A stretch of DNA of 64,000 nucleotides from a virus. The DNA is taken from the IMG/VR virus record IMGVR_UViG_3300034121_001395; one strand, 5' to 3'. Positions 49,793-55,175 of the stretch are shown here, in pieces. The notes below the pieces were generated by a model. That model made no database searches. It was not told the DNA's origin and worked only from the letters and a program-made list of their open reading frames with translations. Made by a program: the position numbers and the translations under genes. Each line of letters begins with the position of its first letter. The first letter of the stretch is position 1.

Positions 49793-49828
49793 TTTATAGC
49801 TCAGTTGGTAATTTTTATAAATAATAAT

Positions 49829-50256
49829 ATGCTTCATAAACATCATATTATTCCACGACACATGGGAGGTACAGACGATCCCTCTAATATAATTGAATTA
49901 ACTATTGAGCAGCACGCAGATGCTCATAAAAAATTATATGAGCAACATGGTAAACTAGAAGATTATGTTGCTTGGAAAGGATTATCTGGACAAATCAACA
50001 GAGAAGAAGTTATTGCTTATAAATGTTCTATGGGCGGTCATGCCAATAAAGACGTGCCAAAAAGCGAAGATCATAAAGCAAAAATTGCTATAACATTAAC
50101 GGGAACAACTCATACAGAGGAAAGAAAAAATAATATTGCTAAATCTGCCATTGGTAATAAAAATTCAAAAAATCATTCTAGCGAAGAATATAAACAAAAA
50201 CAAAGCGATGCAATGAAACAAGCTTGGGCTAGAAGAAAATTAAAACAATCAACAAA

Positions 50257-50266
<10 letters not shown>
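49829..50266 (+). CDS. HNH homing endonuclease; stop codon inside tRNA-Ala
   Basis: HKHHIIPRHMGGTDDPSNIIELTIEQHADAH and NUMOD3-like repeats; TATAAATA upstream. Confidence 0.85.
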
Positions 50267-50331
<65 letters not shown>

Positions 50332-51030: not shown

Positions 51031-51148
51031 TCTTTGTATAAGTAATTTGCAACCGAGCTCAAGAAGAGTGGTGATGCGCATAGGTGATTAGGTTCACGCC
51101 TTCGGGTTAATATGACAAGTATGCCTGCGTAAGCTCTTCATATATTTT

Positions 51149-51247
51149 CAATGTATAGTGTAGTGGTAGCACGCCCCAAGCAAGGGGTTTCTTATCCGAT
51201 AGGATAGGCGACAACGCCGAGGTGATGGTTCGATTCCATCTGCATTG
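51149..51247 (+). ncRNA. tRNA-like RNA with 6-nt anticodon loop and extra hairpins
   Basis: CAATGTA/TGCATTG, D-arm GTG-TAGTGGTAG-CAC, T-arm GATGG-TTCGATT-CCATC. Confidence 0.65.
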
Positions 51248-51257
51248 TTTAATTTTC

Positions 51258-51312
51258 GCGGGATTTGTATAATGGTAATACGCCATCCTTCCAAGTTGGA
51301 GTCATCAGTTCG
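51258..51312 (+). pseudogene. Truncated tRNA-Gly(TCC)
   Basis: GCGGGAT..CCATC-CTTCCAA-GTTGG..ATCAGTTCG, broken in the T-loop by TATAAATA and the HNH ORF. Confidence 0.85.
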
Positions 51313-51329
51313 TATAAATAAATACATAT

Positions 51330-52097
51330 ATGAACTACAAAAAGATTTATGATAATCTGATAAAATATAGACAACAAAATATTTTATCAGATGGATATAT
51401 TGAACGACACCACATTGTGCCTCGATCACTTGGTGGATCTGATGAAGAAACAAATATAGTGGCTTTAACAGGTCGTGAACATTATGTTGCTCATTTACTT
51501 CTAGCAAGATATAATAAATGCAGTCAAACTATATATGCACTTTGTATGATGCAAATAAAAAATATTACGAACGAAGGGCGCCCTCTTATTAAATCTGGTA
51601 GAATGTATGAATGGGCTCGTAAAGAATTTGCTAAATATGTAGCAAAAAATAATATGATTACCTCAAAAGGAGAACAAAATAGTCAATTTGGAACTCGTTG
51701 GATATGTAATATAACTTTAAAAGAAAATCGTAAAATTTCTAAAGATAGTTTGATTCCAGACGGATGGATTGCCGGTCGCAATAAATGGAAACATAAATAC
51801 TTAACGCGAACAGCAAAGGGTTCTAAAGAACATAGAAATCGAGTAAGAGACGCACGTATAGGAAAAAAACTAAGTATTGAAACAAAAGAAAAAATATCTA
51901 AAGCAAATAAAAAATCTCGTTTAGGCAATGAATCTTTAACTGGTAGGATTTGGATTAACAATGGAACAATTAACAAAGCAATACTAAAAAATGAATCTAT
52001 ACCAGAAGGATTTATTAAAGGAAAACTTTCGCGTCATAAGTGTTACGGCAGCACATTAGACTTCCACTCTGAAGGCGTGAGTTCGACCCTCACATGA
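51330..52097 (+). CDS. HNH homing endonuclease (Mob-like); C-terminus overlaps tRNA-Gly
   Basis: MNYKKIYDNLI..ERHHIVPRSLGGSDEETNIVALTGREHYVAHLLL; GEQNSQFGTRWI. Confidence 0.88.
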   Translation: MNYKKIYDNLIKYRQQNILSDGYIERHHIVPRSLGGSDEETNIVALTGREHYVAHLLLARYNKCSQTIYALCMMQIKNITNEGRPLIKSGRMYEWARKEFAKYVAKNNMITSKGEQNSQFGTRWICNITLKENRKISKDSLIPDGWIAGRNKWKHKYLTRTAKGSKEHRNRVRDARIGKKLSIETKEKISKANKKSRLGNESLTGRIWINNGTINKAILKNESIPEGFIKGKLSRHKCYGSTLDFHSEGVSSTLT

Positions 52098-52104
52098 CGC
52101 ACCA
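52031..52104 (+). tRNA. tRNA-Gly(TCC), intact replacement copy
   Basis: GCGTCAT/ATGACGC, TTAGA-CTTCCAC-TCTGA, A73, CCA. Confidence 0.85.
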
Positions 52105-52111
52105 ATTTCAA

Positions 52112-52216
52112 TGGGGTGAAGCTTAGCGGCTTCTATTCTCTTTATACCCTCTACGCTTGATGGGTGCACACTAGACAGCGCATGGTTTTAATAATGACAT
52201 GAGAATACCCCCACCA
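52112..52216 (+). ncRNA. Unclassified CCA-ended structured RNA
   Basis: TGGGG/CCCCA+CCA, GAAGC/GCTTC and TATTCTC/GAGAATA. Confidence 0.5.
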
Positions 52217-52217
52217 T

Positions 52218-52400
52218 TTTTTCCCTGCCATTGTAGGCATAGACACTGCAATGAGCGATTTGACAGAGAGCGGGTTAGCAACCCGATGATGACAAACGTA
52301 ATCCGACGCAAATTAAACTAGTCTTGGAGTCGCTACCAAGATGAAATAGTCACTGTGTTTCTTCAAAGCAACATCGTTGCTTCATCGGTAGTGGGGAAAA
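52218..52400 (+). ncRNA. Unclassified multi-stem RNA with likely pseudoknot
   Basis: TTTTCCC/GGGAAAA closing stem; CATTGTAG/CTGCAATG, CGGGTT/AACCCG and TCTTGG/CCAAGA hairpins. Confidence 0.5.
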
Positions 52401-52405
52401 CACTT

Positions 52406-52476
52406 TGCGAGAGGGATCATACGGAGATCGCTAGGCCCATAGTCTAGAGTGGAGGTTAAAGCCCTCCCCCTCGCAA
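52406..52476 (+). tRNA. Degenerate tRNA-like gene, CAT anticodon, no CCA
   Basis: GATC/GATC D-stem, CTAGG-CCCATAG-TCTAG, GGAGG-TTAAAGC-CCTCC. Confidence 0.5.
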
Positions 52477-52580
52477 TTCGTATCATGCGCGAATCCAAAT
52501 ATGTCATGACGCAGCTAGGTGTGGTTCCTAGATAGCCCCAGCCCTGGGTGAGTGTAGCAGCAATCTGTTATGGGCAAATA

Positions 52581-52771
52581 TTTAACGGGTATGTCGGCTT
52601 AGAAGTAGCCATCATATAAGAAGTGGAACTAAACGTGAAGAAGAGGTAATTCGTATGGATACAATTCAATCAAGCCATACACCCTTGCAAAAGGTACTGC
52701 GATACTCGTGAATTGCGTTTCATAGGACGAGCAATCGTAACTCCTTTGGTGTAACAACAACACCCGTTAAA
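52581..52771 (+). ncRNA. Mimic of the 23S rRNA L11-binding domain (H43/H44) with large insertion
   Basis: ATGTCGGCTTAGAAGTAGCCATCAT (H43-like) and GT-GTAACA-AC (H44-like) inside a TTTAACGGGT/ACCCGTTAAA stem. Confidence 0.75.
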
Positions 52772-54531: not shown

Positions 54532-54814
54532 GGGCTTGTAGCTCAGCGGTAAGAGCAGTCGACTCGATAGGGTCTTCTTATTAGAAATAGTAAGTTAGCA
54601 GAACTTAAATTCAGGGAACGCTTAACGGGTAATGCCGATGCCAATCCTGAGCGAAACCTCGAAAGAGGGACGTGCAGAGACTATAATAGTTCAATCTTAA
54701 CAGGTTATGCTGAAGATTAAGGGATAGTCCAGACCACAAACTGAAAAGGTAGTGAAAACTATAGTGGTAAGCATAATCGATTGGTCGCAGGTTCGAATCC
54801 TGCCGGGCCCACCA
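54532..54814 (+). tRNA. tRNA(CAT), probably Ile2, interrupted by a group I intron
   Basis: Exon 1 54532-54564 ending GTCGACT; exon 2 54772-54814 starting CATAATCGAT; GGGCTTG/CGGGCCC acceptor. Confidence 0.88.
54565..54771 (+). mobile_element. Group I intron (IC3-like, 207 nt, no ORF)
   Basis: P1 GACT/GGTC with U.G pair; P AAATTCAGGGAA, Q AATCCTGAGC, R GCAGAGACTA, S GATAGTCCA; terminal G. Confidence 0.9.
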
Positions 54815-55100: not shown

Positions 55101-55175
55101 GGGGAGTTAGCTCAGCGATAGAGCATCTCGTTTACACCGAGTCGGCCGGGGGTTTGAATCCCTCACTCCCCACCA
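55101..55175 (+). tRNA. tRNA-Val(TAC)
   Basis: GGGGAGT/ACTCCCC, loop TTTACAC, CCA. Confidence 0.85.

Follow-up and report, generated by a model that had tools for sequence, protein, structure and literature searches.

The window, a 64,000-nucleotide stretch of viral DNA (IMG/VR record IMGVR_UViG_3300034121_001395), belongs to a distant T4-like phage whose DNA polymerase shares no more than 46% identity with its counterparts in cyanophage-like myoviruses. Within its 21-gene tRNA cluster we identified a cassette comprising, in order and all on the + strand, a 55-nt 5′ stump of a tRNA-Gly(TCC) (51258..51312), a T4-type late promoter motif read from the sequence (TATAAATA; 51313..51320), an open reading frame for a Mob-like HNH homing endonuclease of 255 aa (51330..52097), and an intact tRNA-Gly(TCC) with an encoded CCA (52031..52104) in which that frame ends. 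Searches of 50,697 cultured-phage records with megablast and blastn recovered no close relative of this region, the matches being restricted to tRNA-Tyr and short HNH pieces; the nearest record to the window is a viral contig of 173.8 kb (G001).

The stump ends in the T-loop after GTTCG, and matches at 55 of 55 positions the 5′ portion of a complete 74-nt tRNA-Gly(TCC) found in four viral contigs lacking the homing endonuclease gene (HEG-less contigs L087-L090). When the spacer is included, the stretch of identity to these contigs reaches 61 of 61 positions, far beyond chance, and Rfam detects a partial tRNA at 51258-51314 with a sub-threshold score of 23.5 bits. We refer to the intact tRNA of L087-L090 as allele A, and to the tRNA at 52031-52104, called by ARAGORN and scored by Rfam at 56.4 bits (gathering score 29), as allele B. 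The two alleles are identical at 46 of 74 positions (62%), and the stump is ~60% identical to B over its 55 nt. No 3′ remnant of allele A was demonstrable in the window; a CACCA end at ~52213-52217 was considered in this role and dropped, because it belongs to a downstream structured RNA (RNA-X, described below) that needs it for its terminal stem, and because B-type genomes without the HEG have it too. The stump and the HNH gene lie between two copies of a 7-nt repeat, TTTCGCG.

The product of the gene matches PHROG 655 "homing endonuclease" (E = 6.8e-38), and residues H27, H28, N42, H51 and H55 are invariant across 10 homologues. Matches from tblastn were to annotated MobB/MobC-like genes at 30-38% identity, and the Pfam HNH score (18.7 bits) falls below the cut-off of 21.4. 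No GIY-YIG match was returned for the 255-aa protein, which is an HNH protein, and comparison with solved structures gave no informative match. Values of dN/dS of 0.14 relative to the homologue in L007 (dS 1.04) and 0.18 relative to that in L190 (dS 0.58) indicate purifying selection. Across the family the N-terminal 150 residues, which form the catalytic half, are 35-83% identical; the C-terminal part is 46-76% identical among the three Gly-linked members compared and otherwise ~20-30%. Since this part is shared only among the Gly-linked members compared, the presumed DNA-binding module co-varies with the adjacent tRNA. No Rfam intron was found at 51258-52104 and no 3′ half of allele A follows the gene in the window; this is not an intron- or intein-encoded homing endonuclease.

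Closer inspection of the overlap between gene and tRNA showed that B begins at the third base of codon 234 and that the TGA stop (52095-52097) lies in the 3′ acceptor strand. The original prediction, of a tRNA-Gly(TCC) stopping in its T-loop, a late promoter, and an HNH gene whose last 22 codons run through an intact, divergent tRNA-Gly(TCC) with the stop in its acceptor stem, thus holds in all of its coordinates. Its description of this DNA as dual coding was, however, an overstatement. The conserved protein consists of residues 1-233 and homologues align only to ~233, and the tail past a conserved KG[KR] motif varies both in sequence and in length (22 aa in the window, 8 aa in L094, and 3 aa in L101). 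Furthermore, the tRNA-encoded tail differs from that of L007 with a dS of only 0.24, its substitutions follow the constraints of the tRNA, and the T-stem changes in L007 are compensatory. The overlap therefore represents read-through into the tRNA rather than a conserved protein segment.

The late promoter lies 9 nt upstream of the ATG in the window, and 5 nt before it in most of the homologues displayed. Folding of 51295-51345 predicts a hairpin covering the start codon (51307..51336, + strand), in which 51307-51316 pairs with 51327-51336 to form a 10-bp stem (-8.2 kcal/mol, z -2.3). This places TATAAATA inside the predicted structure, as in the late-promoter/hairpin arrangement of T4; the 5′ arm is composed of the T-loop of the stump (GTTCG) and the 5′ end of the promoter motif, and the 3′ arm contains the ATG. 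Comparable start-codon hairpins were predicted in all 10 of the other members of the HNH family that were folded, with a z of approximately -1.6 or lower in seven and a stability no better than that of shuffled sequence in three. The hairpin accounts for a conserved GTTCG-like motif upstream of the promoter. The motif could alternatively be a second remnant of a T-loop, which explains it less well than does the 5′ arm of the hairpin, and both readings may hold. No Shine-Dalgarno sequence was seen for the window HNH gene. By analogy with T4, the hairpin would hide the start codon in read-through transcripts and leave them untranslatable, and the promoter within it would yield a late mRNA starting a few bases before the ATG, nearly leaderless. 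Translation, with no stop codon belonging to the HNH gene itself, would run 67 nt into B. The original prediction also had tRNA processing cut the nuclease mRNA, a reasonable but more speculative idea under which cleavage by RNase P at B would leave the HNH mRNA without its stop codon.

Upstream of the cassette lies a 100-nt tRNA-like gene with extra arms (51149..51248, + strand; Rfam tRNA, 40.9 bits), which is 90-95% identical in L090, G001, L173 and L176 and forms a left flank common to A-type and B-type relatives. This conserved gene is uncalled by ARAGORN; a 4-bp stem with a 6-nt loop occupies the position of its anticodon arm, and its variable region holds two additional hairpins. A 109-nt stretch between it and tRNA-Tyr (51036-51144) is missing in G001, and the equivalent place in L010 is occupied by a late-promoter ORF of ~150 codons. 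Immediately downstream of B is RNA-X, a structured RNA of 113 nt ending in ACCA (52105..52217, + strand), for which a consensus fold with a 5-bp terminal stem was obtained; no covariation was found in this fold. RNA-X follows B in G001, L171, L173, L174, L177 and L190 and is absent after A in L087 and L089; it is thus a companion of the B allele only, and is probably co-inherited with it. Next is a longer conserved non-coding RNA (52218-52590), common to A-type and B-type phages at 81-97% identity; neither it nor RNA-X contains an ORF. Elsewhere among the tRNA genes, 54550-54753 gives a group I intron-like Rfam match of 42.3 bits, under the gathering score of 50, and pieces of this region align at separate places in L007 and L089.

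Comparisons with HEG-less relatives revealed how the two alleles are distributed. As the original prediction had expected, relatives without the nuclease gene were found to carry an intact stump-type tRNA-Gly: in L087-L090 allele A lies at the same locus, after tRNA-Tyr or the tRNA-like gene, and precedes the conserved non-coding RNA found from ~52218 onwards in the window. In G001 and the L010-L015 group, the tRNA-like gene is instead followed by a 10-nt spacer and then by a B allele 100% identical to that of the window. These genomes lack both stump and HNH gene, such that 51258 to ~52026 is missing with both flanks kept, which constitutes a presence/absence polymorphism. A pattern scan identified B without HNH in 12 viral contigs, including G001 and the closest relatives of the window, within at least four spacer contexts (10 at 100% identity, an eleventh partially read, and a variant in L172), and in all 12 it is the sole tRNA-Gly(TCC) seen at the locus. 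A stump paired with an intact tRNA, the finding that would have counted against the original prediction, was never seen in HEG-less genomes. Given that HEG-less relatives carry either A alone or B alone at the same place, we consider A and B to be alternative alleles of one locus. By the same token B is not specific to the cassette, and the proposal that the element targets tRNA-Gly and carries a same-anticodon substitute has to be narrowed: it is supported by insertions in L094 (compared with L009), L194 and the tRNA-Val locus of G001, but the substitute also exists as an ordinary resident gene.

The flanks of the window are, on both sides, 95-98% identical to those of B-only genomes (G001, L173, L176) and 81-90% identical to those of the sampled A-type contigs, suggesting that this genome may have received stump and HNH as a unit upstream of a resident B. 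Two histories fit these data. Either the cassette spread in a sweep across an A-type clade, with stump and HNH lost afterwards from most lineages, or the stump and HNH entered a B-type backbone together; under the second, the breakage of A at the T-loop stays as an earlier event and the window genome's own tRNA is no longer claimed as the victim. Exact-pattern scans of viral contigs gave no match to the stump/promoter junction or to the replacement tRNA of L094, and found the left junction of the window only in L090. Allele A had no match elsewhere in G001, although an empty answer from such a search carries little weight. The sequence AAAACTTTC, a candidate footprint of the HNH 3′ end in L171-type HEG-less genomes, resembles the generic T-rich tRNA spacers of the group; the spacer before B in these genomes is almost the same as that of the cassette.

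More direct views of insertion were obtained in three further cases. In L094, compared with the HEG-less L009, an insert of ~785 nt comprising a hairpin, promoter, HNH gene and new tRNA-Gly interrupts the resident tRNA-Gly at the T-loop and separates its 5′ portion from a 14-nt 3′ portion, within flanks 90-98% identical to L009. The stump of L094 is an allele mosaic, its T-arm side resembling allele A of the window and not the local allele, so that part of a stump does move along with the cassette. In L194 the stump and HNH gene are followed by a B-like tRNA body joined to an A′-type 3′ acceptor strand (anticodon read by eye; the chimera is uncalled by ARAGORN), placing the right-hand crossover inside the T-arm. 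Finally, the tRNA-Val(TAC) locus of G001 (L185 1208-2060) contains a decayed GGGGAGT-type stump, an HNH paralogue and a divergent 81-nt tRNA-Val(TAC), and the window at this locus is HEG-less, with an intact GGGGAGT-type tRNA-Val (55101-55175) between the same flanks as in G001. Co-conversion of flanking donor markers is thus seen in the L194 chimera and the mosaic stump of L094, as well as in L190, where both B and RNA-X follow the HNH gene.

The cassettes of L190 and L007, with HNH proteins 84% and 78% identical to that of the window, share the arrangement of the window, running from stump through TATAAATA and HNH to B, and their HNH frames stop at the equivalent point of the tRNA. The L190 stump is identical to intact A at 57 of 57 positions, and that of L007 is decayed. 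Neutral remnants travelling with such diverged genes should differ at many sites, and the stumps of the window and L190 are unchanged despite the HNH dS of 0.58 between them; these stumps therefore appear to have been renewed from live A alleles, as repeated homing into A predicts. In the B-type tRNA-Gly of L007 (3702-3775) the T-loop reads TTTGACT in place of a TTCGA-type sequence and the GG of the D-loop has undergone a G-to-A change, apparently a pair of compensating substitutions at the G19-C56 tertiary contact, within a motif that is otherwise conserved.

Examination of HNH homologues in viral and metagenomic contigs revealed a common layout, consisting of a 5′ tRNA stump, TATAAATA ~5 nt before the ATG, the HNH gene, and a stop inside an intact tRNA of the same anticodon. 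Cassettes of this kind were identified for Gly (related contigs L094, L191 and L194), Gln (L099), Trp (L100), Val (L101 and G001), Arg(ACG) (L117), and Thr(TGT), the last in the cultured Vibrio phage VB_VaC_TDDLMA (PP083315.1; L184 1076-1893). Among the first eight cassettes whose stump anticodon could be read, six have a partner tRNA with the same anticodon (chance probability 4e-7). Those unpaired with a same-anticodon tRNA are L098, with a Thr stump before tRNA-Leu and a broken ORF, and L008, with a Ser stump and no nearby partner. Across cassettes the stump is 57-88% identical to its intact partner, which marks the two as divergent alleles rather than copies of recent origin. The T-loop sequence TTCRA is the end point of at least eight stumps; three others end elsewhere, in the D-loop (a second cassette in the window) or close to the anticodon arm (the Vibrio phage and L117), reflecting either erosion or other cut sites. 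In the Vibrio phage cassette, a tRNA-Thr(TGT) stump that breaks off beyond the anticodon loop precedes TATAAATA, a Shine-Dalgarno-like AAGAGGAA, and an HNH gene with its stop inside an intact tRNA-Thr(TGT); this phage could serve as an experimental system. We also observed that nuclease-linked replacement tRNAs for Thr, Val and Trp, normally short types, reach 79-87 nt through expanded variable regions beside the T-arm (L010 3691-3777, L101 3154-3239, L185 1208-1288 and L100 2335-2413), an expansion that could represent a means of escaping recognition.

The second HNH cassette of the window (49797-50331) has the same layout with an HNH of another subfamily. A 14-nt tRNA-Ala D-arm remnant (49797-49810), matching an L010-type allele, is followed by TATAAATA (49816-49823), an N-terminally short HNH gene starting at the ATG at 49829, and a stop (50264-50266) inside an intact tRNA-Ala (50257-50331). 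Folding predicted no start-codon hairpin here. This cassette is absent from L010, in which tRNA-Pro is followed by 10 nt and then tRNA-Ala.

Taken together, these findings suggest that the cassette at 51258-52104 is probably a free-standing Mob-like HNH homing endonuclease that lands in phage tRNA-Gly(UCC) genes and carries a spare tRNA-Gly along with it. Judging from the junctions, the nuclease would cut A-type alleles within or next to the T-loop, and B would escape cutting. The break would be repaired from an HNH-bearing genome. On the right side, repair would resolve by homology at or beyond the tRNA 3′ end, such that the donor B allele, here with RNA-X, is co-converted; the left junction would stay inside the target, leaving the 5′ stump, which could then provide the left homology arm for later rounds of homing.

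The strongest challenge to this reading comes from the B-only relatives. If the window descends from a B-type ancestor resembling G001, only the A stump, promoter and HNH gene might make up the mobile unit, inserted between the tRNA-like gene and a resident B, with the stump as a passenger. The target would then be the spacer or 5′ edge of B-type loci, or arrival would have been by ordinary recombination, and B would be neither supplied by the cassette nor necessarily immune. The flank identities of 95-98% to G001, L173 and L176, with A-type contigs less similar, agree with this scenario, and a single gain is more parsimonious than several independent losses of HNH; the TTTCGCG repeat around stump and HNH, and the partly window-A-like stump of L094, which implies that part of the stump moves with the cassette, also point this way. 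No site within B can be the target, however, given that B is intact in the HNH-bearing genome, and the spacer before B in L171-type HEG-less genomes is almost equal to that of the cassette. Moreover, an earlier break of an A allele at the T-loop is still required, the un-decayed stumps of the window and L190 need recent contact with live A despite the dS of 0.58, and the L094, L194 and G001 tRNA-Val cases are insertions into the tRNA itself. We regard a passenger stump as rather unlikely.

Two further explanations fare worse. The geometry of the TTTCGCG repeat could indicate that a single tRNA-Gly was partially duplicated in tandem to give the stump and the intact tRNA, through target-site duplication or SegB-style segmental amplification, with one copy diverging later. 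The identity of only 60% between stump and B over 55 nt, on which we rejected a target-site or tandem duplication, together with the 100% identity of the stump to alleles in other phages and the occurrence of one allele or the other at the same locus in HEG-less relatives, makes such an origin extremely improbable. The strong purifying selection on HNH might alternatively reflect a domesticated nuclease that no longer homes and is kept, for example, to renew or amplify tRNA genes against tRNA-targeting defences, the stump being an inert scar; amplification of tRNA genes by SegB has been shown to let phages evade a tRNA-cleaving defence (PMC13096335). Yet near-identical backbones differ in the presence of the cassette, renewed stumps and a chimeric junction are marks of ongoing mobility, and the window has no sign of amplification, so that domestication appears improbable.

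Returning to the homing cassette, a broader and more tentative extension is that a modular HNH family drives the turnover of tRNA alleles in phage tRNA clusters, a possibility that we consider doubtful. In each member a conserved catalytic half would be fused to a specificity module at the C-terminus, itself physically linked to a tRNA that is an immune isoacceptor; the member would destroy a same-anticodon resident at the T-loop and install its own tRNA. The stump would serve both as left homology arm and as one arm of a hairpin that silences the nuclease until late in infection, and the stop inside the tRNA would tie nuclease output to tRNA processing, the RNase P cut giving a non-stop mRNA. 

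Homing endonucleases spare their hosts by hiding in introns or inteins or by sitting between genes. The cassette suggests a third route, in which the target gene is broken and a working, presumably resistant, copy is delivered with the nuclease. If so, this route would help to account for phage tRNA clusters being mosaics of divergent isoacceptor alleles, for the tRNA stumps found beside nuclease genes, and for odd features of some nuclease-linked tRNAs, such as long variable arms. It also opens the matching of HNH specificity modules to tRNA genes to study in natural examples, of which VB_VaC_TDDLMA is a cultured one. T4 SegF, SegG and MobE are free-standing endonucleases that cut a nearby gene of a phage lacking the nuclease, whereupon repair installs the resistant donor allele along with the nuclease gene. 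This intronless homing, or localized marker exclusion, with co-conversion of a resistant allele is the logic of the cassette; those events are, however, clean homologous replacements of protein-coding genes that are not known to leave a remnant, whereas the window keeps a truncated copy of the target beside the nuclease gene and the gene replaced is a tRNA. In T4 I-TevI, e and soc, a hairpin sequesters the start region in early read-through RNA and a late promoter inside it gives a translatable late mRNA. The window likewise has a start-region hairpin with the TATAAATA late promoter within; it differs in that the 5′ arm is a T-loop remnant (GTTCG) and in the little or no leader that its late transcript would have.

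Nuclease genes have also been described at boundaries of genetic exchange between phages (PMC10448857). T4 SegB recognizes the T-loop motif GGTTCRANTCC, cuts inside the tRNA genes of relatives lacking SegB, and drives inheritance of the tRNA region, its homing carrying neighbouring tRNA genes along (PMC2330249); later work links SegB to tRNA-gene rearrangement via microhomology between a tRNA 5′ end and the nuclease-gene 3′ end (PMC13096335). Full-text literature searches turned up no account in which a tRNA stump and a replacement tRNA of the same anticodon are paired beside an HNH gene. SegB is a GIY-YIG enzyme and the window nuclease is HNH/Mob-like, and the SegB accounts consulted mention neither a target remnant in the form of a 5′ stump nor a replacement allele with the same anticodon, nor a frame ending in the downstream tRNA. 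Both are nucleases encoded among phage tRNA genes. T4 SegB is the closest described case, and the cassette is probably a form of intronless homing.
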